Shown here: one piece after another, positions 3,045 to 54,009 of the stretch | Layout: each line of letters opens with the position of its first letter | How positions within the stretch are numbered: the stretch's first letter is position 1 | Virus record (IMG/VR): IMGVR_UViG_3300010149_000001 | Coordinates: 17,677-81,676 of that record | DNA from: a virus | Reading direction: 5' to 3' (one strand) | DNA: 64,000 nucleotides | Translations under genes and position numbers: made by a program | The notes under the pieces: model-generated | The model's input: the letters and a program-made list of their open reading frames with translations, nothing else | What the model was told of the DNA's origin: nothing | The model's database searches: none

Positions 3045-4214
3045 ATGGGACTAATTGAAAACATGAGAGATGCCGTTGAGTTCAACGGTGGCAAACTGAC
3101 AGAAGAACAATACTTGGAAAAAGTGCTGGAGATAATCGAAAGCGAAGGTGGCTCAACCTCCATCGCTTCTCTGAAATCCAACGCATTCAATTCTGCTCGT
3201 ATGGAGAAGGCTGGAATCACCAGACTGACCATCGGCAAAGACAAGTTCGTTTGGACAACCGCTATGGTTGAAGGAATGCTTTCTGGCAACGCTACACCAA
3301 TGCCAACAACAACAATGGTCAACAATGTCAATGCACCAGAAGCAACAGACGATGGCTACTTCTATGGAATCCGCCGACGCTCTCCAGATGAATACCCAGA
3401 ACACATGCAAGCATACATCATCCCTCGTGGTTCACTCAAGTTTGTTGAATCAGAAAAGGGCGAGATGCGCTTGCTTGCTGTCGCATTCAAGAACGGCTGG
3501 TATGTTTCCAGCAACGGACCCAAAGGCTGTGGCAAGACAATGGCTATGATGATGTTCGCTTCTGAGGTCGGTATTCCATTCATGCGAATTAACTGCTCAG
3601 AAGGTTTCACAGAAGAGTCCTTCATTGGCTACAACACACTCATTGACGGTGAAATCACTTGGATTGACGGAGTTCTCCCAGAGAGCCTCCGATACGGTGC
3701 TTTCCTTTGCTTCGATGAGTTCCGCCACGCTCGCCCAGAGATTATGACCGCATGGAATCCTGTTGGCGACTCTGGCACTCTTGTATTGCCTCAGAACAAC
3801 AACGAGGTCATCAAGGCTCACGCTGACTTCCGCACCTTCGCAACCATGAACCCAATCGAAGGCTACTCTGGTGGACAAGATGTCAACCAAGCAACATCTG
3901 ACCGATTCGCTATGTCTCTTGAGGCTACATACCTCCCAGCAGACTCTGAAATCCGTGTCATCTGTGAACAGTCTGGTGTTTCAAACCCAGCCATCGCTCG
4001 TCAATTCGTGCAATTGGCAAACGACCTTCGCAACCTCAAGGCTCAACATGACCTTGAGTCTGACACATCAACCCGTATGCTCATCAGCATGATGCAAGCA
4101 ACAACAGATTTGTCTGTTGCTGAAATCGTTGAGTATATCATGATTGGTCGCTATCAACCACACGAAGCCGAACTCATCAAGACAACGGCTCGTGCAAGGT
4201 TGTCTGACTACTGA
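3045..4214 (+). CDS. MoxR-family AAA+ ATPase (CbbQ/NirQ/CobS-like)
   Basis: Walker A GPKGCGKT, Walker B CFDEF, FRTFATMNP..GY.G and DRF motifs; AGGAG SD upstream. Confidence 0.9.
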   Translation: MGLIENMRDAVEFNGGKLTEEQYLEKVLEIIESEGGSTSIASLKSNAFNSARMEKAGITRLTIGKDKFVWTTAMVEGMLSGNATPMPTTTMVNNVNAPEATDDGYFYGIRRRSPDEYPEHMQAYIIPRGSLKFVESEKGEMRLLAVAFKNGWYVSSNGPKGCGKTMAMMMFASEVGIPFMRINCSEGFTEESFIGYNTLIDGEITWIDGVLPESLRYGAFLCFDEFRHARPEIMTAWNPVGDSGTLVLPQNNNEVIKAHADFRTFATMNPIEGYSGGQDVNQATSDRFAMSLEATYLPADSEIRVICEQSGVSNPAIARQFVQLANDLRNLKAQHDLESDTSTRMLISMMQATTDLSVAEIVEYIMIGRYQPHEAELIKTTARARLSDY

Positions 4215-5535: not shown

Positions 5536-7794
5536 ATGAGCCACTCACCGAATGCGGGAATTGAAGTCAAGAACCCACAGCGAAAGTTCCAGATGAAAAG
5601 CCGTGTGCGAACCCTAAACCGTGTCGCAACCGTCATGTCTGGTGAACTTATCAATGTTGGAACACCTGTCAAGAAAGTCGTCGTTGACCCAAGAGGTCGT
5701 GCGGCTACTGACGGCGAGACTGTCTGGATTCCTCTGAAAGTTCACGAGGATGAGCGTGTCAACCGTATGGCTCAAGAAGCAATCCTCGCTCACGAAGTCG
5801 CTGGTCATCTCCGATACACAGACTTTGGTGCTTGGAAAAAGATTGGCGATGAAATCAAGCGTGGCAACGCTGACCGTATGCTTCACGACTTCACCAACAT
5901 TCTTGAGGATGCTCGTGTCAACCACCTGCTCTCCCAAGACTTTGGTGGCTCTGGCAAGCGTCTGCTTGCTACTCAGCGCATCTTCATGCAACGCCACCGT
6001 GATTCATGGGCTGGCAAGACTGTTGATGAAATCAACCCACGCCAAGCGGCAATCATCGCTATGATGACAGAAGCAATCGCTCACGAACCACACTTCTTTG
6101 AACATGTCCCAGAAGTCGTTGCATACATGGATGAAGTTCGCACTATCTGTGCAACAGCAATCAGCCAACCAAACACGGCTCAAGTCATCAAGCAAGCAAA
6201 GAGAATGCTCAAAGTCTATCGCACCCACTTCCCAGAGGATGCTTCTGACGACCAAGACACATTCGGTATGCCAAACGGTGCAGATGCAGAAGGCATCATG
6301 ACCGACGACATGTCTCCAGAAGAGATTGAGAAGATGGCTCAGAAGCAAGCAAGCAAGAATGCAAAGCCAGAAGAAGTCAGCCGTCAGAGATTCCAAGACC
6401 TCAAGAAGAAAATCGAGGAACTCAAAGAAGCCGCTGAGAAGGCCGCTAAAGCGCAAGAAGAGTCTGATGCTACTCCAGAGGCTGGAGATGCAAACGAAGG
6501 CTCTGAGGGCGAAGGAGAGGGCGACTCTGAGGAATCTGGTGCTGGTGCTGGCGAGTCTGATGAAGAAGCAGACGGCGAAGGTGCTGGCGAGGGCGATTCT
6601 GGCGAAGGTGCTGGAGATGGCTCTGAGGGCGATTCTGAGGGCGAAGGCGACTCTGGTGCATCTGGCGAAGGCGAGGGCGAAGGAGAGGCTGACAGCGCAT
6701 CAGAAACAGGCGAATCCACAGAAGGAACAACCTCTGACGACTTGGGCGACATTGACTCTGGCTCAGACGAGATGAACGCTGGTGGTGCAAAGGGCGCAGA
6801 CCTATCCGACATTGACATGGATGAGATGTGGGCTGAACTCCAAGCAGAGATGGATGCAGAACGCCAAGACGCTTTCGACATGCAGAAGGACTTCTCTGAT
6901 GAAGTGGATGCAAGCCAAGACTCCAACGACAACATTGACGCTGAGTTCGACACTTCTCTTGAAGGCGATGAAAGCGGCCACCAATGCCACATCACTCACA
7001 CCACTCAAGAGTTCATTGACAGAGGCGACATTGATACAGACTCTCTGGCTCAAGGCTTCTTGGACATCGTTGCTGAGAACAAGTCCTCAATCACCACTAT
7101 GGTCAACGAGATGAAGAGACTCTTGAAGGGCAACAACAACAAGCATGTGCGTGGTCTAAAGCGTGGAATGCTTGACTCCAAGCGCATCGCTTTTCACAAG
7201 ACCAATGACCGCTTGTTCATGCGAAAGAATGAGCCAAAGCGAGCAGAAGCAAATGTCATGATTCTCATTGACTCCAGCGGCTCAATGGGCGGCTCTCGTG
7301 CAGAATCAGCGGCTCGTGCGGCGGTTGTATTCGCAGAAGTCATGGACAAACTTGGCTGGGGCTGTGAGGTCGTTGACTTCTCATCCAGCCGACACACAGC
7401 AATCAGAGTTCGCAAGCAAATGCAAGCACCTTTGAACAACATCACTCGTGCGGCTATCCGCCAACCAACCGCTGGTGGATGCAACGGTGATGGCTATGCT
7501 GTCGAGTGGTGCTTAGACCGCTTGTCCAAGTTCTCTGGCAACCGCATGTTGTTCGTCTTGTCTGACGGTCAACCATCCGGACCCGCACCTTCTCACATGG
7601 ACAACGACACCCACTTGAAGTTCGTTGTTGACAACGCACCAAAGGACATTGGATTGTTCTCAGTCGGCATTGACGGCATGGACACAGGCGCATACTACTC
7701 CAACGCTGTCATCAACCGCAACAACGCTGACTTGGTGAAGGACTGTATGCCTGTTATCCGCAAGATGGTTCGCACAGTCAAGAACAAAGCATGA
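5536..7794 (+). CDS. vWA-domain protein with N-terminal HExxH metallopeptidase-like domain (CobT-like; likely MoxR partner)
   Basis: LAHEVAGH, NILEDARVN, long acidic G/E/D/S linker, MIDAS DSSGS and LSDGQP. Confidence 0.88.
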   Translation: MSHSPNAGIEVKNPQRKFQMKSRVRTLNRVATVMSGELINVGTPVKKVVVDPRGRAATDGETVWIPLKVHEDERVNRMAQEAILAHEVAGHLRYTDFGAWKKIGDEIKRGNADRMLHDFTNILEDARVNHLLSQDFGGSGKRLLATQRIFMQRHRDSWAGKTVDEINPRQAAIIAMMTEAIAHEPHFFEHVPEVVAYMDEVRTICATAISQPNTAQVIKQAKRMLKVYRTHFPEDASDDQDTFGMPNGADAEGIMTDDMSPEEIEKMAQKQASKNAKPEEVSRQRFQDLKKKIEELKEAAEKAAKAQEESDATPEAGDANEGSEGEGEGDSEESGAGAGESDEEADGEGAGEGDSGEGAGDGSEGDSEGEGDSGASGEGEGEGEADSASETGESTEGTTSDDLGDIDSGSDEMNAGGAKGADLSDIDMDEMWAELQAEMDAERQDAFDMQKDFSDEVDASQDSNDNIDAEFDTSLEGDESGHQCHITHTTQEFIDRGDIDTDSLAQGFLDIVAENKSSITTMVNEMKRLLKGNNNKHVRGLKRGMLDSKRIAFHKTNDRLFMRKNEPKRAEANVMILIDSSGSMGGSRAESAARAAVVFAEVMDKLGWGCEVVDFSSSRHTAIRVRKQMQAPLNNITRAAIRQPTAGGCNGDGYAVEWCLDRLSKFSGNRMLFVLSDGQPSGPAPSHMDNDTHLKFVVDNAPKDIGLFSVGIDGMDTGAYYSNAVINRNNADLVKDCMPVIRKMVRTVKNKA

Positions 7795-25060: not shown

Positions 25061-25324
25061 TCAGAACTCGTGTGAGAAGTCATCAGATGCGCCAACAGAT
25101 GCGGCCATTGAGTATGTTCCAAAGGGCATGAAGTATTCCTCTGTGGTGTGTCCACAGGTGAATGACTTAACGCTTCTGCGAACTTCAACACCGTCAATAA
25201 CTGTCCAGATGCTGGAGGCAGTTCTGCGTGTGATAGTGAAATACCAATGGCATTCTGAATCACAGATGGAGGTCGCTTTGTATGTGCATCCTTCGTTGAA
25301 GGTGAATGTTCCGTGTCGGCTCAT
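25061..25324 (-). CDS. Small hypothetical protein (early-type cassette, antisense to neighbours)
   Basis: Full promoter element on the minus strand at 25343-25384; MSRHGTF...SICDSEC. Confidence 0.75.
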   Translation of the reverse strand: MSRHGTFTFNEGCTYKATSICDSECHWYFTITRRTASSIWTVIDGVEVRRSVKSFTCGHTTEEYFMPFGTYSMAASVGASDDFSHEF

Positions 25325-27448: not shown

Positions 27449-27598
27449 ATGCCACTCATGCTGGTCGCCTGTCAAGAGTGCAATCGCACCAAATGGTCAA
27501 GGTCTCCCAGACCCAAGTGCAACGCTGTGGATTGCTCAAGACGCTATGGCAACATGAAGGCAGTTCAGCCCCAGCCAGAGCCACCAGAATGGGCTTAA
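27449..27598 (+). CDS. Small Zn-ribbon protein
   Basis: CQEC...CNAVDC; GGGAGG SD upstream. Confidence 0.55.
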   Translation: MPLMLVACQECNRTKWSRSPRPKCNAVDCSRRYGNMKAVQPQPEPPEWA

Positions 27599-28038
27599 GC
27601 CCACTCTTGCATCATGACCTTAACGAATCGGTTGAATCGCTTGCGGCCTGTCTCGTTTTTCTTGTCTGCTGGTTTCCAATTGAATCCCAGACTGAACTGA
27701 GCAGATGTGCCACGAGTGCCATCAGAACTGACCCATTGGCCTTCTGAGATTCGGACAAACTTTGGGAACTGTGCAACAAACGCTTTGGTGTCAGCATCGT
27801 TATCAAAGTGAAAACTCAAGTTCATGCTGAAACTTGGGGGAACTTGCCAATTGTCCCAATCTCCTTCTTCTGCTTGGACAAAGGTTTCTGCTTCTAATTC
27901 AGCGGCGTTGAATCTTGCTTCTGCATCATCAAGGCATTCTGCGATAGTCTTGAACTGTGCGGCTTCGTGTTTGATTCCACAGCCTCCATAATAAGTTCCT
28001 TTCGATAGTGTGTTCCAATGCTCTCCTGTTGTCTGCAT
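27595..28038 (-). CDS. Hypothetical protein (early-type cassette)
   Basis: GCATTGATAAGGG box on the minus strand about 30 nt upstream. Confidence 0.7.
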   Translation of the reverse strand: MQTTGEHWNTLSKGTYYGGCGIKHEAAQFKTIAECLDDAEARFNAAELEAETFVQAEEGDWDNWQVPPSFSMNLSFHFDNDADTKAFVAQFPKFVRISEGQWVSSDGTRGTSAQFSLGFNWKPADKKNETGRKRFNRFVKVMMQEWA

Positions 28039-28140
28039 GTGTTGAACCAATGGGTCTCCCCTTATCAATGCTTCGATATTCCAATACTTTGATGTCTGAA
28101 TAGGAATGTTCTTATACTACTACACCCACCCATCAAATAC

Positions 28141-28256
28141 CCCGCCAGACGGGTGATACCCCAAGACAAGCCCCCAGAAGTGCGATTGACGAATCCTGTC
28201 TCCGCTTCTGGACACGGCCTCTGGAATACGAGGGGAATGTCTGGCACTCATATTCC
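28141..28256 (+). ncRNA. Candidate small RNA A
   Basis: TTATAC box 29 nt upstream; GCCAGAC/GTCTGGC closing stem; 3' tail GGCACTCATATTCC identical to RNA B. Confidence 0.55.
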
Positions 28257-28295
28257 TCCCAAAGCAATTAAACCACAGATGCCCGTCATCACGCT

Positions 28296-31200
28296 ATGGC
28301 AGAGCGTAAGCGCACCTTCGCAGACCGATTGCTGGGGCGCAACAGGTCAGCATCCCCAGCCGATGTGCAACGCTTAACCAAACTCATCAACGACCAACAC
28401 CAACCAGAGATGGATTGGGATGGCAAGGCTCTGGCTTCAATGTCCAAAATCGGACAGGCCACCTCCGCATCGAAGGGCAAAACAGGTTCTGGCGGAACTC
28501 AAACTCAAGTATCATACAATCTGCTCAGAGACATCTCGCTCAAGTCTGAGGTTGTCAACGCTATCCTCAGACGATGTGTTGACGACATTCTGGGCAACGG
28601 ATATTCATTCATTCTGGCAGAAGGCAAAGAGAGTGGAGACACGGCTCAATTGCAGAAACTCAAGGACTTCTTCAAGAATCCAAATCCAGATGACAACGGC
28701 AACGAGTGGATGGAATCACTCATCTATGACCTGTGCCTGTTTGGAGATGCGTATCTGGAACTCGATGGTTCAGATGACACCAACACAGATGGCAAAGGAC
28801 AGTCGTGGACATACGGCGGCGAACTCGCAAGTGTCTGGCCTATCCCAGCAGAGCAGATGACTTTGCTCGCTGGCAACCGCAGACCAGAGCCACCAGAGAT
28901 GGCATACATGCAGAAACTCAACGGCGAGACCAGAAAGTTCAGCAAGGACAAGGTGATTCATATCTCCAAGTTCAAGCATGGTCGTGCATACGGGACTTCA
29001 CCTCTGATTCCTCTGCTCAATGTGATTGCTGGACACCTCAACCTGTCGAACTATCTGAATGAACTCTATACAGGAACTCTGCCCAAGACCATTCTCAATG
29101 TGGGCGACATCAGCAACGCTGAGATGAAAGCCATGCTCGCACTTCTGGAACAGCAATTGACAGGTGGCAAATCGCCATTCGGTCTGGTCGCTGTGAACGG
29201 TGGAACAGGATTCAATATGCACAGGATTCTGGACTCGACCAGAGAAGGCGCACAGTTAGACCTGCTATACTACTATCGTGAAGAGATATGCGCTGTCTTT
29301 GGCATCCCACCGATGAAACTTGGCTGGGTTCAGACAGGCAAAATGTCCAACCCAGAATCTCAATTAGAGGCTTGGTATGATGTCATTGAATCATATCATA
29401 AGCGTGTTGAGGCAGTTCTCAACAACCGACTTCTGCCACTCTTTGAAATCACCGATTGGGAGTTCAAGTTCACCACCATCCGACCCAGCAGGGACAAGGA
29501 GATTGCAGAGACTCGCAAGGCAGAAGCCAACGCTATCTCCAACCTCCGTCAAGAAGGTGTCATATCAATCAACGAGGCCAGAAGTATGCTTGGCTTTGAG
29601 CGTCTGTCTGAGCCAGAGGCAGATGACCCGATGTTCCTATCACCCAAACTCGCCATCAACAAGGGCAAAGTGGAATCTGGTGTTGAGACTGAAATGTCAA
29701 TTCCATCTCTTGCAGATTTGTTCCCATCTCCAGAATCACCATCTGATGAAGGCAAAGGTGCTGGTGAGCATCCAGATTGGCTCGATGAAATCCCGTTGGT
29801 TGAACTATCTGATGATATTCGCACCGATATGCTTCAAACCAGAATGAAGAACTCAGACGAGTTTGAAGAAATTATCGCAGAATCAGAGGCAGTTCTGAAA
29901 GCAGTTTTTGAAGAAGGACAGGAATCATTCGCATCTGCTGTCATCAAGGAACTCAACGAGATGTTCTCTGCTGGAGATGAAGCGGTTGAGATTCCAGATA
30001 TTGACCTTGATATTCCTGTCAAGTCCTATGTCAGAAAGGCAACAATCAGTCTGGATGATATTGAATTGGCCGTTGGTGCTGTTGATGCAAACATCGGTCT
30101 GGCGATTGAATCTCAAGTGGCATCTGCTGAACTCACATTGGTCGGTGCGTATGAAGCATCACTCGCAACCACACTTGCACCCACAGGAATCTCTGCGGCT
30201 CTGATGTCTGACGATATTGCCGCCATAGCCTTCTGGCGAAGTCGCTGGGTTCTGCCAGCCCTCAGAAGGACTCTTGGCTCTCACAGAGCGAACATCATTG
30301 ACACCTTTGAGCGAATGGTGTCTGATGGCGAATCGTGGCGATGGGCGAGAGCAGAGATGCGTTCTCTGATTGACCCAAGTGGCAAGCGTTATCCAGCATA
30401 CTACTATGACCGAATCGCACGAACTGAAACCAGACGAGTCGTTGAAAACTCTCACATCTCTGGAATGAGAAGGGCTGGATTCCAACATGTTCAGAGGCTG
30501 GTCGTTGTTGACGACACGACTGACAGAGACTTATGCGCCCCGTATGAGGATGCAGTTTATCCGATTGCAGAATCCAAATCTGTGATTCCAGCACACCCGA
30601 ATTGCCGATGCACATTTGTTGCGTATGAGGGAACTCCAGAAACCGTTGTTCCATCTGACCAGATTCTGACACCCGTTATTGAGTTCAATATGAATGTAGT
30701 GAACAAGGCTGTGAGTTCTGCGGTGCGAGATGGGCTGGCAACCAAAGCCAAAGAGCATAATGAAAAAGTCAAAAATGCCAAGACCAAAAAGACCAGCACC
30801 AGAACTCTGATTGCTGTGTTTGAAAGAGGCGTTGGTGCATACAATACAAATCCATCATCGGTCAGACCAAGCGTCAGTTCACCAGAACAATGGGCGTATG
30901 CTCGTGTCAATTCATTCCTCTATTGTCTAAGAAACGGCAGGTATCGAAGCGGCAAGCACGATACTGATTTACTGCCCAAAGGACACCCACAGTCAACCAA
31001 GTCAGTCTCTAAGCGAGCATTGACCAGAAAGGATTTGACTCCACCAGCAGGGGTCAAGAAAGCATGTGCAACAGGAATCAAACTCTTTGAGGATGGATAT
31101 GGAGGCTCTGGACTTGAGGCCACGACCATCCGTGAGGCCAGAAGCATTGTCAGAGGAACTCCAATCACAGTCGCCAAAGCCAGAAAAATGATTCGCTGGT

Positions 31201-31331
31201 GGGGTCGCAACGAGAGATTCCTCACCTTCGACAAGGACACACCAGCATGGACAGCCGCCATGCTCTGGGGAGGTCGTGCTGGACTATCGTGGTCAAACAA
31301 ACTCCAGAGAGCGTTGGAGGCAGACGAATGA
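28296..31331 (+). CDS. Portal protein fused to a Mu gpF/SPP1 gp7-like head morphogenesis domain and extra C-terminal domains
   Basis: HK97-like portal motifs (LCLFGDAY, YGTSPL, ICAVFGIPPMKLG, GVISINEAR); RIARTET and PAHPNCRC. Confidence 0.9.
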   Translation: MAERKRTFADRLLGRNRSASPADVQRLTKLINDQHQPEMDWDGKALASMSKIGQATSASKGKTGSGGTQTQVSYNLLRDISLKSEVVNAILRRCVDDILGNGYSFILAEGKESGDTAQLQKLKDFFKNPNPDDNGNEWMESLIYDLCLFGDAYLELDGSDDTNTDGKGQSWTYGGELASVWPIPAEQMTLLAGNRRPEPPEMAYMQKLNGETRKFSKDKVIHISKFKHGRAYGTSPLIPLLNVIAGHLNLSNYLNELYTGTLPKTILNVGDISNAEMKAMLALLEQQLTGGKSPFGLVAVNGGTGFNMHRILDSTREGAQLDLLYYYREEICAVFGIPPMKLGWVQTGKMSNPESQLEAWYDVIESYHKRVEAVLNNRLLPLFEITDWEFKFTTIRPSRDKEIAETRKAEANAISNLRQEGVISINEARSMLGFERLSEPEADDPMFLSPKLAINKGKVESGVETEMSIPSLADLFPSPESPSDEGKGAGEHPDWLDEIPLVELSDDIRTDMLQTRMKNSDEFEEIIAESEAVLKAVFEEGQESFASAVIKELNEMFSAGDEAVEIPDIDLDIPVKSYVRKATISLDDIELAVGAVDANIGLAIESQVASAELTLVGAYEASLATTLAPTGISAALMSDDIAAIAFWRSRWVLPALRRTLGSHRANIIDTFERMVSDGESWRWARAEMRSLIDPSGKRYPAYYYDRIARTETRRVVENSHISGMRRAGFQHVQRLVVVDDTTDRDLCAPYEDAVYPIAESKSVIPAHPNCRCTFVAYEGTPETVVPSDQILTPVIEFNMNVVNKAVSSAVRDGLATKAKEHNEKVKNAKTKKTSTRTLIAVFERGVGAYNTNPSSVRPSVSSPEQWAYARVNSFLYCLRNGRYRSGKHDTDLLPKGHPQSTKSVSKRALTRKDLTPPAGVKKACATGIKLFEDGYGGSGLEATTIREARSIVRGTPITVAKARKMIRWWGRNERFLTFDKDTPAWTAAMLWGGRAGLSWSNKLQRALEADE

Positions 31332-31738
31332 GCATGACCAACAACAACGCTCAGACTCGTGCCAATCTCATCAAGGCCAGAGCCGCATTCACACTCATGA
31401 AGAATGAAATGGTGCATACAACGACACCAAAGAACTTGGACACCATCGCTCAGAGAATCCTCACAGATGCCAAGAGGAATGCACCCGTCAGAACAGGTGC
31501 GCTCAGAGCGTCTGGCCGTGTGAAGCGAGTTAATCAGTTCAGACGCAGAGTTCAATTCGGCGGTGCTGGAACAGGTGTTGACTATGCACAGGCTGTTGAG
31601 TTTGGAACAATCAACACCAGACCCAGACCATACCTTGAACCAGCGGTGATTAAGAATATCAAAAAGACTCCAGCAATTGTCAGACCATCCATTAGAAAGT
31701 GGTTGACTAAACTTGTTCTGCTGGGTTCATCGGATTGA
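31328..31738 (+). CDS. HK97 gp10-like head-tail/neck protein
   Basis: AKRNAPVRTGALRAS, YAQAVEFGT, RPYLEPA. Confidence 0.85.
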   Translation: MSMTNNNAQTRANLIKARAAFTLMKNEMVHTTTPKNLDTIAQRILTDAKRNAPVRTGALRASGRVKRVNQFRRRVQFGGAGTGVDYAQAVEFGTINTRPRPYLEPAVIKNIKKTPAIVRPSIRKWLTKLVLLGSSD

Positions 31739-31743
31739 TGAAT

Positions 31744-31929
31744 GGAATATGAGTGCCGACTATGGGATTGACCCTCGCCACCGACCTCTCGATGGTGAGT
31801 CATTAACTGTCTGGGGGCAAGAACCCCATAGTCGGACAGGTTGCACAGTTTTCTCCTTCTGCTCGATTGCCCGACCCGCCCTTTTGGGGCGAAGGGTTCT
31901 TCCAGAGTATGCTCGACTGTGCGGCGGGC
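31744..31929 (-). ncRNA. Candidate small RNA B (~185 nt)
   Basis: Early-type promoter on the minus strand (31951-31990) with no ATG at +29; 7-bp and 11-bp perfect stems; G-U pairs favour the minus strand. Confidence 0.6.
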
Positions 31930-32032
31930 AAACCAGACGAGTCGCTACCCATATATCAATGTATCGTCAATATCAATGCTTTTTGCCCTCATATCACCAA
32001 TGTTAAAACCCGCCAAAGTCAACCAGATGGAT

Positions 32033-33565
32033 ATGCGAGCCGTATTGGTTGATGGAGATGACTACACTCAACGCTCTGGTGAGAGCAAAGAAGTCCAAAT
32101 CAAACTTGAGGCTCAGATGCCATTCATCTTGGACAAATCATTCCAGAAGGATGCAGAGTCAGACTATGAATATGAGATTGGCGACGATGATGTTGTCATT
32201 CGTGGACCCGTCTATGTTGGGAACTCAGATATGCTTGACCGACATAACGAACTCGTTGCGCCAGATGCGCTCATCAAATCATGGGGAGACTATCAGAAGA
32301 ATCCCGTCATCCTATACAACCACTCTAAGACATACGGTGTCATCGGCAGAATGCTCGATGTCGAGATGGGAACTTGGGATGGCATCAAAGGTGAAGTTCC
32401 AATCGGCAGAGCCGTGATTGACGGTGGCGAAAAGGATATTGTCAGAAAAATACGCAAGGGATTCCTCAGAGCATTCAGTATTGGTTTCATCGCTAAGGCG
32501 GCAATCAAGGAATGCAAAGACGATGAGACATGCTACATGACCTTCACAGAGGTTGATTGGCTTGAGACCAGCGTGGTTGATGTGCCAGCATCGCCCAACG
32601 CACTATTCAATGTTCAGAAGCATGTGCTTGGATATGAGGACATGGGTGAATCAATCGCTATCCTCTTTGAGAAGATGCCAATGGAATCACCATCAGAAGA
32701 ACCCCCTGCTGGTGGAGATATGGAATCGCCTGTTGAAGAATCGGCGGATTCTGGCTGTGGATGCAAATCACATATCGAGTCCGATACTCCAGAAACTGTT
32801 AGCGGCTTCGATTCTGAAATTGACTCGTTGAAGGCTCAAATTGCTGAGATGAAAGAACTACTGCTCGCAAGTCTGACACCTTCTGAGTCCCAAAAGTCCG
32901 AATCTGAAAATACCGATTCACTTAATACCCCCATTGACAAAGGCATTGGACAACAGGTGAACCAAATGACAGACGATACACTCATTGACACTCCAGAAGA
33001 AGAGGTCATCGTTGCCTCAGAGGAACTTGAAGTTCCCACAGAAGAACTATCCATTAAGACAGAGGCTGTTGAAGAAGCAGAAGAAGTCGTTGAAGAAGCC
33101 GCAGAAGAAGTGGCAGAAGAAGAACTCCCAGAAGAAGTCGTTGAAGAAGTCGCAGAAGCAACAGAAGAAGAATCTGCTGGCGAACCAACAACCACAGAAG
33201 TCATGATTGAAGTCGTTAAGGCATTAGCAAATGTCGAAGCACGACTTTCAACCATTGAAGGACACATTAAATCAAGTGAGGACATTGACACACTCAAGTC
33301 TGAACTTGCATCCATGAAGGCTGAGAAGGAAGCCGCAGAAGCAGAAGCAAGCATTGAGGCAGAAGTCGCCAAGCGTGTTGCAGACCTTGTTGGGACAACC
33401 CCAGAGGTCAAGACTGTTGAAGCATCTCCAAAGAGCCTCGCATCCACAGGAACAGAAGTTAAGAAAGCAAACCACACCCGCCACGACCCAACACCAACGG
33501 TCAGCAACGGTATGAATGGTCTGGCTGGATGGCTTGAAGTTCAAATCGCCAAGCGAGGTGCTTGA
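32033..33565 (+). CDS. Prohead protease (HK97-type) fused to an acidic scaffold domain
   Basis: NPVILYNH, AFSIGF, ETSVVDVPASP; Glu-rich coiled-coil C-terminal half; TTAAAACCC box 30 nt upstream. Confidence 0.9.
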   Translation: MRAVLVDGDDYTQRSGESKEVQIKLEAQMPFILDKSFQKDAESDYEYEIGDDDVVIRGPVYVGNSDMLDRHNELVAPDALIKSWGDYQKNPVILYNHSKTYGVIGRMLDVEMGTWDGIKGEVPIGRAVIDGGEKDIVRKIRKGFLRAFSIGFIAKAAIKECKDDETCYMTFTEVDWLETSVVDVPASPNALFNVQKHVLGYEDMGESIAILFEKMPMESPSEEPPAGGDMESPVEESADSGCGCKSHIESDTPETVSGFDSEIDSLKAQIAEMKELLLASLTPSESQKSESENTDSLNTPIDKGIGQQVNQMTDDTLIDTPEEEVIVASEELEVPTEELSIKTEAVEEAEEVVEEAAEEVAEEELPEEVVEEVAEATEEESAGEPTTTEVMIEVVKALANVEARLSTIEGHIKSSEDIDTLKSELASMKAEKEAAEAEASIEAEVAKRVADLVGTTPEVKTVEASPKSLASTGTEVKKANHTRHDPTPTVSNGMNGLAGWLEVQIAKRGA

Positions 33566-39301: not shown

Positions 39302-39393
39302 ATCCCTGCGTGTGCATACCACTATATCAATGCGTCGGCCATATCAATGGTTTTGTTCTTAAAATGAGCAAGTTTTGGTTCGCCAGAAAGGGT

Positions 39394-39490
39394 GGGACAT
39401 GGTGGTTATGGCGGCATATACAAACCGACTGACAGCCCACCATGCCCCGATGTTGGATGCCCAATCCAACAAGGAGGTTTAGCCGTCAGC
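39394..39490 (-). ncRNA. Candidate ~100-nt pseudoknotted small RNA
   Basis: TGATAAACC box 29 nt upstream; crossing 9-bp and 12-bp helices; 8-bp hairpin; G-U pairs on the minus strand only. Confidence 0.55.
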
Positions 39491-39568
39491 AATTATCAGA
39501 CTCCAGAGTCGGTTTATCAGCGTATTCACGCCAATACCGTTAAAACCCCTCACGGATGACCAAGACCC

Positions 39569-53212: not shown

Positions 53213-53967
53213 GTTGGGGGCGCAAACCCCCAGCCGAAGTGATACCTCCCGATGCGAGTCGGGGGGTGAATTGAAAGGCCAGACCAGCGAGATTTAACAC
53301 TCCCTGTGCGATACCCTAATGCGAAAGTTCTCATCATGCACTCCCTCCAGATACAGTCCCTCCATCATACTCTCTTATCCGCTTGGTCTGGCCGATGACA
53401 CTCAGAGGCTAAACTCCGAGTCCCGATTCAGCACCCCTCGTGGGATAAGTCTGCTACAACCTTTGCTGGGGGACAACGAGGGGGGCGAACCCTCCCTAAG
53501 CCGTGAAGAGGGTCGTTGCCTAAGAGGTCAAGGGCGTGAAGTCGGAACTTAGATTCCTTCACGATTCCTAATCTCACCGATACGGTTCTGGAAAAACCAG
53601 AAACGGGTTGCGACTGAAAGAAGCGTTAAACTGAGTTCTGGGATTTGTTCGCCCCAGATGAGTGTCTGCCCTCAGAGGGGGTCGTGGTAAGGGTGGCATA
53701 CCCACGACTTTCCAGATGAGGTCAATTCACGAAGCAGAGAACCCGCATCCAACATGGGGCGGCTCGTGGGTGGCTTAAAAATGAGAAAGACAAATCCAAG
53801 TCCTATCGGCCACTTTAGAGAGAGTTCTATGGTTGAGGCTGGGAACAGCCCCAATGGAACGGAGTCTTAGGCAGGGATGCCTCTGATAGACTCGCATGTA
53901 TAAGCGCAACCACTCAGATAATATCTGTGCTGGGTTGTGTCGCAACCTGCTTCTATCCTTCAATTCA
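53213..53967 (+). ncRNA. Candidate large (~755 nt) highly structured RNA
   Basis: No credible ORF; promoter at the right distance; more than 12 helices including several perfect 8-10-bp long-range pairings; GNRA tetraloops. Confidence 0.75.
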
Positions 53968-54009
53968 GACATCAACACTCACATAAACCCCCCAGAGCAA
54001 CGCATCAGT

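Follow-up and report, generated by a model that had tools for sequence, protein, structure and literature searches.

Locus and Putative Promoters

The stretch of viral DNA analyzed here (the window) comprises 64,000 nucleotides (nt) and represents bases 17677–81676 of the 81,676-bp IMG/VR virus record IMGVR_UViG_3300010149_000001, which has direct terminal repeats. It contains a block of two virion genes, with a terminase gene upstream and the prohead protease/scaffold and major capsid genes downstream. The block consists of a gene coding for a portal protein fused to a Mu-F-like domain (28296..31331, +; PF04860 at 2.8e-39, PF04233, PHROG 12) and a gene for an HK97 gp10-like head-tail connector (31328..31738, +; PF04883 at 1.6e-07, PHROG 5), whose likely start is the ATG at 31328 behind a GGAGG. 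Two short elements border this block, RNA A upstream of the portal gene (28141..28256, +, 116 nt) and RNA B downstream of the gp10-like gene (31744..31929, −, 186 nt). Neither contains a plausible open reading frame (ORF) on its promoter strand, and both are candidates for structured RNAs that share the same 3′ end.

Element A begins with CCCGCC at 28141, 22 nt from the TATA-like box CTTATACT (28111–28118, +) that by reading would drive it, and continues as a structured body (A type), a closing helix, and a 3′ tail. Element B begins with CCCGCC at 31928 (−), its base 31929 lying 22 nt from the box TTGATATA (31959–52), and comprises two domains with predicted stems GCACAGU/ACUGUGC (domain 1) and CCGACUAUGGGG../..CCCAUAGUCGG (domain 2), followed by the tail. 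Boxes and starts had been described in the initial annotation and were confirmed by reading. Both boxes keep the standard distance of this genome, but a helix-forming CCCGCC stands where other copies have an ATG. The A box is arranged back to back with the promoter (TATA TTGATAAG at 28068–28061) of a divergent gene for a protein of 147 amino acids (aa; 27595..28038, −; ATG 28038), and the block 28059–28117 that forms the A promoter region is conserved in the related contigs L119 and L002. Element B is preceded by an early-type promoter repeat, AAGCATTGATATTGACGATACATTGATATA (31952..31990, −), which is conserved in the relatives L124 (26 of 29 positions) and L141 and is a full copy of the repeat found in front of small accessory genes and of a large RNA candidate of approximately 750 nt; contigs of the sequencing runs X4 and X10 share only 31952–31985 of it. 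This promoter lies back to back with the box GTTAAAAC (32002–09) of the protease/scaffold gene (32033..33565, +; PF04586, PHROG 80), which starts at ATG 32033, as it does in L124.

The family B DNA polymerase of the virus has its top matches in the phage collection among haloarchaeal tailed viruses, and among the other proteins encoded are an RFC-like clamp loader, an ERCC4/XPF nuclease with HhH motifs, and a PrimPol-like protein. The text of one study describes magroviruses as having terminally redundant genomes of approximately 100 kb with such replication genes (PMC5434244). The related contigs and all 24 runs that contain the stretch, each of them a DNA-type metagenome, are of marine origin. 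The virus thus probably is a marine tailed, magrovirus-like virus with an archaeal host. Throughout the genome, TATA-like hexamers starting 27–30 nt upstream of an ATG are enriched, and ORFs of at least 60 aa are opened by 41 of the 64 ATGs preceded by such a hexamer, compared to 28% of all ATGs. This spacing looks like the pattern of archaeal promoters with leaderless mRNAs, and it recurs in front of the portal gene (AATTAAAC at 28266..28273, +, 22 nt before ATG 28296), the protease gene (GTTAAAAC, 23 nt), and the minus-strand 147-aa gene (TTGATAAG, 22 nt). The portal mRNA would accordingly be leaderless; a block at its promoter, TTCCTCCCAAAGCAATTAAACC, is conserved in L001, L002, and L119. 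Early and late promoter classes, as the terms are used here, were assigned from sequence only. By eye, the A promoter could also be read as a bacterial sigma-70 promoter (TTGATG-18-TATACT), a possibility that was dropped because the polymerase matches, the box spacing, and the replication genes favor a TATA-type promoter.

Searches of the whole window against Rfam 15 gave no match at the gathering score, and at E values up to 10 both loci returned only chance-level matches of 10–15 bits, as compared to gathering thresholds of 45–70 bits. A tRNA/tmRNA scan found none. An assignment to the archaeal box C/D small RNAs was tried and rejected: these RNAs have a C box RUGAUGA near the 5′ end and a D box CUGA near the 3′ end, and by reading A contains GUGAUAC and CUGG and the B-site element of L124 (L124B) GCGAUAC; no snoRNA model scored above 10.3 bits. 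Pattern scans with the A promoter, the B-type, A-type, and L002A-type blocks, and the flank of L142 recovered only loci already in the comparison or unrelated coding sequence.

The Shared 14-mer and Its Chance Level

The 14-mer GGCACTCATATTCC occurs at 28243–28256 (+) and 31744–31757 (−) with 0 mismatches, the two copies being inverted and separated by 3,487 nt; neither the window nor the 81,676-bp record as a whole contains a third. The identical 3′ tail reported initially is thus real and unique to the two sites. Copy 1 starts with the final bases of the closing helix and continues through the G-free tail, its TTCC part belonging to the flank as well; copy 2 ends at a distance of 5 nt from the gp10-like stop codon. 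With the adjoining bases included, 17 of 18 positions match, GTC(T)GGCACTCATATTCC, and a local alignment of the two intergenic stretches scored 29, with shuffles reaching a mean of 17.0 (standard deviation 2.1) and a maximum of 26. No further copies of the tail-plus-stem module were found elsewhere in the genome.

By itself the identity of the 14-mers is suggestive, weak rather than decisive evidence. The window contains 182 maximal exact repeats of at least 14 nt, compared to 8–18 in 10 mononucleotide shuffles, and most of this excess is reproduced by a 5th-order Markov model (177 repeated 14-mers observed on the plus strand versus 78–129). Simple arithmetic scaled from the 182 pairs gives approximately 0.006 such repeats expected in the two short intergenic regions. 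Word usage is strongly skewed, and the count of exact short repeats is inflated as a result: there are 836 occurrences of TCTGG/CCAGA in 81.7 kb, a density of 5.1 per kb and strand with 0.98 expected (approximately five-fold), and CTCTGG and CTCTGGA are 6–7-fold over-represented (CTCTGGA seven-fold). Uniform statistics therefore underrate the frequency of exact 14-mers and of TCTGG-containing motifs in this genome, a caution that also applies to the further motifs that had been listed as common to A and B. These are indeed present, namely GCCCCCAGA (28170–78 and 31818–10), CTCTGGAA (28219–26 and 31907–00), and CGAGGG..AAT (28229–38 and 31777–67), but carry little weight, because they contain the over-represented TCTGG/CCAGA. 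A search with GGCACTCATATTCC in IMG/VR matched 111 stretches, and among the 80 listed there was no locus with blastn similarity to the window (E 1e-8), which corresponds to chance level.

Exact inverted 14-mers that flank both genes could be the arms of an invertible or recombining segment which flips the portal/gp10 block, as had been suggested as an alternative. However, all relatives that span one or both sites (L001, L002, L119, L124, and L141) are colinear with the window, contigs of run X4 span both copies in the orientation of the reference, and joints that change strand are absent from the contigs of four runs, a sample in which rare forms could be missed. A flip would also leave the portal gene pointing away from the promoter that belongs to it, and no recombinase family was detected among the 32 distinct proteins scanned, which do not exhaust the genome. 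Inversion of the block is accordingly so improbable that it can be set aside, and the identical 14-mer is therefore better understood as the shared end-piece of two otherwise different cassettes.

Predicted Folds and Covariation

The minimum-free-energy folds of A (+) and B (−) have energies of −41.9 kcal/mol (z-score −2.58) and −69.7 kcal/mol (z-score −3.05), respectively, and the opposite strands fold more weakly (z-scores −1.24 for A and −1.96 for B). In both folds the tail is unpaired and follows a closing helix, in agreement with the initial annotation.

The A site of L119 carries a homolog of domain 1 of B (79% identity over 92 columns), and the comparison of the two sequences allowed an assessment of base pairing. 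Among 25 predicted pairs, three double changes stay paired, three single changes lead to G-U, and none is broken, whereas slid controls, with the partner shifted by 1–3 columns, paired in 36–48% of the cells and contained 0 double changes. The loop changed from CAAAA in B to UUCG in L119. All seven pairs of the closing stem hold in B, L119, and L141, with two of them covarying, and the stem holds in L141 even though its 3′ strand there lies beyond the homology breakpoint. In the consensus fold of the A-type body, GCCCCCAGA and CUCUGGAA pair with each other as CCAGA:UCUGG.

The same substitutions bear on the possibility that the two loci encode small proteins on the opposite strand. The reversed 14-mer, GGAAT ATG AGT GCC, opens ORFs at both sites that begin with Met-Ser-Ala, one of 43 aa at A (28251 to 28120, −) with a GGAGG 5 nt before its ATG, and one of 85 aa at B (31749–32006, +) that fills the gap between two plus-strand genes. 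Moreover, L119 has GTG AGT GCA GAT TAC where the window has ATG AGT GCC GAC TAT, and three of the four substitutions affect the third base of a codon. These ORFs are not conserved, however: they are stopped after 2 codons in L002 and 18 codons in L124, and in L142 and L144 the ATG is missing. Window and L119 differ by 20 substitutions, distributed 4/7/9 over the codon positions, which is not significantly uneven, the alignment needs three 1-nt insertions or deletions, and the two conserved A-type blocks stand in different relative frames in the window and L124. No promoter box is found at the usual distance, and the openness of the ORFs means little, since two of the three frames are open across domain 1 of B. 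Protein-coding genes on the opposite strand are thus highly improbable.

Loss, Replacement, and Apparent Movement of Elements in Related Genomes

The portal genes of the relatives are 80% (L001), 81% (L124), 97% (L002/L120), and 95% (L119) identical to that of the window. L141 is 94% identical in the flanks, and L142/143 and L144 belong to a lineage with 66% identity. A portal search of the genome contigs collection found no relative. At the A site, window positions 27594–28252, which encompass the 147-aa gene and A, are wholly absent from L001 and L124, where 27593/27598 are joined to 28253/28257 in a clean absence. L002/L120 retained the 147-aa gene, gained a second gene, and have an unrelated body of approximately 310 nt in place of A (L002A), window positions 28102–28246 being replaced in L002 by approximately 700 nt of other sequence. 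In L119, the B domain 1 homolog (L119A) is inserted in the orientation of A behind the same promoter block as A and is directly followed by CACTCACATTCC. The diverged A element on an X12 contig has a rewritten middle hairpin and 109 extra letters exactly between 28246 and 28252, which fits the modular pattern.

At the B site, L124 carries an A-homologous body on the minus strand, for which the local alignment z-score was 4.1 as compared to 0.4 for the reverse-complement control. The blocks conserved between A and L124B are GATACCCCAAGACAAGCC..CCCAG and GGCCTCTGGAA.A.GA.GGG.ATG, and the middle hairpin is swapped for another hairpin. In L141, a B-type domain 1 is joined to a different domain 2. 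L142/143 and L144 have an L002A-type body and a further body, respectively, at the junction of the gp10 and protease genes, in plus orientation just upstream of the protease promoter; in L142 the L002A-type body stands behind TTGATATAC at the register of the A box. The bodies at this junction in L141, L142/143, and L144 occur in either orientation. By reading, more distant relatives appear to have protein-coding inserts at the B site. Since bodies are swapped, replaced, or missing in the relatives, the A and B sites would be hot spots between which bodies move, and the order of promoter, body, and tail seems always to be kept through the exchange. The initial annotation had regarded A and B as a paralogous small RNA family. 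They do belong to one set of candidate promoter-driven, ORF-less elements with bodies swapped between sites in relatives, but A and B themselves are alike only in the last 17–18 nt, and their bodies are of different types. The combination of promoter repeat, helix-closed ORF-less body, and G-free tail ending in AUUC(C) was found in full in A and B of the window, L119A, L002A, L142/143, and L144.

The protein-coding neighbors of the elements vary as well. The divergent partner gene at the A site codes for 147 aa in the window and for 140 aa in L119 (1984–2406, −), and L002 has an additional gene for a Cys-rich protein of 104 aa (3082–3396, −); none of the three cassette proteins received a Pfam, PHROG, or PADLOC assignment at threshold. 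Positions 876–1064 of L142/L143, within the gp10/protease gap of approximately 1.9 kb, are homologous to window positions 25091–25285, which here adjoin the terminase gene, and therefore protein cassettes also appear to move between hot spots. Within the portal protein, residues 801–902 (window approximately 28801–29000; the DUF5824 region) are 69–75% identical to records of Roseobacter phages of the CRP series. This stretch of approximately 100 residues is annotated as major capsid protein in the CRP records, and it also explains many matches to Salinibacter phages.

Several of these junctions would also be expected if the 14-mer were the footprint of exchange at the DNA level, i.e., a recombination joint next to bodies that are decayed or neutral filler. 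In L001 and L002, homology breaks off within or at the 14-mer, which also weighs against a purely RNA-level role of the tail. The TTCC at the A site is part of the flank, L119 has ..AATCC after its tail like the B-site flank of the window, the additional sequence of the X12 contig lies exactly between 28246 and 28252, and short exact repeats are plentiful in this genome. Filler would not, however, be expected to keep all 25 pairs between B and L119 intact at 79% identity, with G-U pairs that fit one strand only, nor to have the closing stem of L141 restored across a recombination breakpoint. There are, furthermore, no fewer than five different bodies, all of them ORF-less and all behind intact promoters. 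A mere exchange footprint consequently is rather unlikely as an explanation of the elements.

Another way to explain the elements is that the act of transcription matters in cis and not the RNA product. Early transcription of A would run over the portal promoter, and that of B would proceed antisense into the gp10-like and portal genes, so that the late portal operon would be delayed or damped by promoter occlusion and polymerase collision, with body and tail being incidental or serving RNA stability. No terminator-like T-run follows the tail of A or B. Five of eight elements (A of the window, L002A, L119A, L142/143, and L144) end 15–30 nt upstream of a late-type promoter of the same direction, the other three point antisense into the gp10-like gene, and the promoter repeat of B is the same as that of the small accessory genes. 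Pure interference, however, requires neither helices kept by compensatory changes nor the exchange of one hairpin for another; L001 and L124 manage without the cassette at the A site, and the promoter timing classes that this explanation uses were themselves read from sequence. As the sole explanation, cis-acting transcriptional interference is unlikely, but it is a live alternative or may be an additional role of the elements.

The 3′ Tail

The 3′ ends of the eight distinct elements are CACUCAUAUUCC in A and B of the window, CACUCACAUUCC in L119A, CACCUCAUAUUCC in L002A, CAUCAGUAUUCC in L142/143, CAACCUAUUCC in L144, ACUCACCACUAUUC in L124B, and CACCUCA, followed directly by the gp10 stop codon, in L141. 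AUUC is present in seven of the eight and AUUCC in six, and these AUUC(C) ends adjoin three unrelated flanks, namely the portal promoter, the end of the gp10-like gene, and the protease promoter of another lineage. In four elements checked by eye (A and B of the window, L119A, and L124B), there is no G for 16–27 nt after the helix. The 14-mer thus can be described as a shared 3′ boundary module, in which a G-free tail presumably continues the 3′ strand of the closing helix. The conserved single-stranded tail proposed initially is supported to the extent that it is unpaired in the folds and that a short G-free end-piece recurs, but it is not universal. TATTCC is not over-represented in the genome (0.29 per kb versus 0.24 expected). 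A function of the tail as general terminator was considered and rejected, as the 40 nt that follow each of 80 roughly called genes show no excess of TATTCC, ATTCC, CTCAY, or T-runs.

The tail had been proposed to pair with AUGAGU starts, and duplex energies were calculated for 44 box-led viral gene starts, at five of which the tail pairs with GGRUAUGAG at −11 kcal/mol or better. The support is marginal: the mean energy of the top five duplexes (−13.2 versus −10.3 kcal/mol) was reached by 3.7% of 300 shuffled tails with CAU kept (p approximately 0.04), and the overall mean by 26% (p = 0.26). The best non-self duplex, −15.3 kcal/mol, is located at the minus-strand start 39301. A gene for 98 aa at genome position 17179 (window −497), between the RFC-like and polymerase genes, starts with AAUAUGAGUG behind AAGGAG, and the 10 nt of AAUAUGAGUG, which span the start codon, are perfectly complementary to the tail. 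The box-led genes at 5536, 25324 (−), 39301 (−), and 40341 (−) and at genome positions 9838 and 10408 have a start region of the form ..CACGCARGGRT ATG AGC C, which resembles the reverse complement of the 14-mer (GGAAT ATG AGT GCC). The variant UCACCUCA of L002 and L141 resembles the 3′ end of 16S rRNA.

Two further ORF-less elements of the window may be compared. The large RNA candidate (53213–53967) is preceded by the promoter repeat that RNA B also has, and GUGAUACC occurs both in this candidate and in RNA A. A tail-like sequence had been noted behind it, and CACTCACAT is indeed present at 53976–84, but it overlaps the TATA-like box CATAAACC, 20 nt before ATG 54010; because of this overlap, the resemblance is unproven and was not counted. 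The ORF of 2409 aa called from 53896 more likely starts at this ATG 54010, 20 nt after CATAAACC. The other element, 39380–39492 (−), lies behind the late-type box CTGATAAACC and is followed by CUUGCUCAUUUUAAG; it is the only candidate here with a U-run behind it.

Interpretation and Implications

On balance, it appears slightly more probable than not that this probably archaeal, magrovirus-like virus has a set of structured-RNA cassettes (“RNA morons”), ORF-less and each with its own promoter, to which A and B belong. Each cassette would combine a TATA-type promoter, as also found on small leaderless accessory genes, with a variable modular folded body and a 3′ boundary module, to which the closing helix contributes its 3′ strand and in which the G-free tail reads CACUCAUAUUCC or is a variant with AUUC(C) at its end. 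The hot spots occupied by cassettes would adjoin late promoters or the ends of genes in the surroundings of the portal/gp10-like block, and between strains cassettes would be lost, replaced, or shifted from one hot spot to the other. The RNAs may be made early and act in trans via their bodies, the tail may mark or stabilize the RNA 3′ end, and tail and promoter repeat together could supply the short homology for body exchange.

Several observations weigh against this interpretation. Exact 14-mers are common in the genome, neither A nor B has a T-run or other recognizable terminator after its tail, and TATTCC shows no enrichment behind protein genes (2 occurrences versus 0.9 expected). L141 lacks the tail, that of L124B fits only loosely, the TTCC at the A site is present even in the cassette-free L001, and the TATTCC of L142/L144 may likewise be shared flank. 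The covariation is thin, with 2–3 sequences per body type, and in a control, albeit a weak one, 60 of 500 shuffles attained the observed values. The single-fold z-scores of L119A (0.07), L002A (−0.71), L124B (−1.45), and L144 (0.09) are unremarkable.

The proposed cassettes resemble the morons of tailed phages in that they would have their own promoter, are located between essential virion genes, and are present, absent, or replaced among close relatives, and in that the cassette at the A site is paired with a small divergent gene. They differ from these by having ORF-less folded sequence as cargo, no recognizable terminator, and TATA-type promoters with leaderless logic. In the PeSL cassettes of T4-type phages, an early promoter and stem-loop repeats bracket small ORFs and mediate modular shuffling. 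The arrangement described here is similar, with an early-type promoter repeat at one end, a helix and a short conserved motif at the other, and units shuffled between sites and genomes, but the unit between the ends is the structured sequence itself, and the host is of another type. Like GOLLD and ROOL, and like the 750-nt RNA candidate of the same genome, A and B would be virus-borne, promoter-driven, and highly structured. In contrast to the former two, they are only 116 and 186 nt long and match no Rfam model, and no sequence homology to GOLLD or ROOL was found. With trans-acting base-pairing small RNAs they would have in common a short structured RNA with a conserved unpaired stretch, but the seed would be at the extreme 3′ end, and its enrichment over shuffled tails is marginal. 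An integron-like organization of hairpin and core site was dropped, as there is no integrase among the proteins scanned in this non-exhaustive survey.

A more far-reaching scenario would be an undescribed class of mobile self-promoted structured RNAs in archaeal, magrovirus-like viruses that reprograms translation during infection, either by pairing of the tail seed with the 5′ ends of leaderless early viral mRNAs (GGAUAUGAG...) or by the UCACCUCA variants of L002 and L141 that mimic the anti-Shine-Dalgarno end of the 16S rRNA, with the bodies as exchanged arms-race cargo. This scenario is speculative and must be considered distinctly unlikely.

A word search of the article texts of two magrovirus papers (PMC5434244 and PMC11706807) found no mention of promoters or non-coding RNA, annotations of which could be present in the supplements. 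What the present analysis contributes are the small elements, the apparent swapping of their bodies from site to site, and the end-piece common to them. For viruses of the abundant, uncultured marine archaea, almost all that is known concerns protein genes. If A, B, and their counterparts are real RNA genes, such viruses would possess, in addition to accessory proteins, a repertoire of structured RNAs that is subject to shuffling. These RNAs would offer short targets (116–300 nt) for metatranscriptome mapping and structure probing and would represent a natural example of RNA modules swapped between fixed genomic hot spots.

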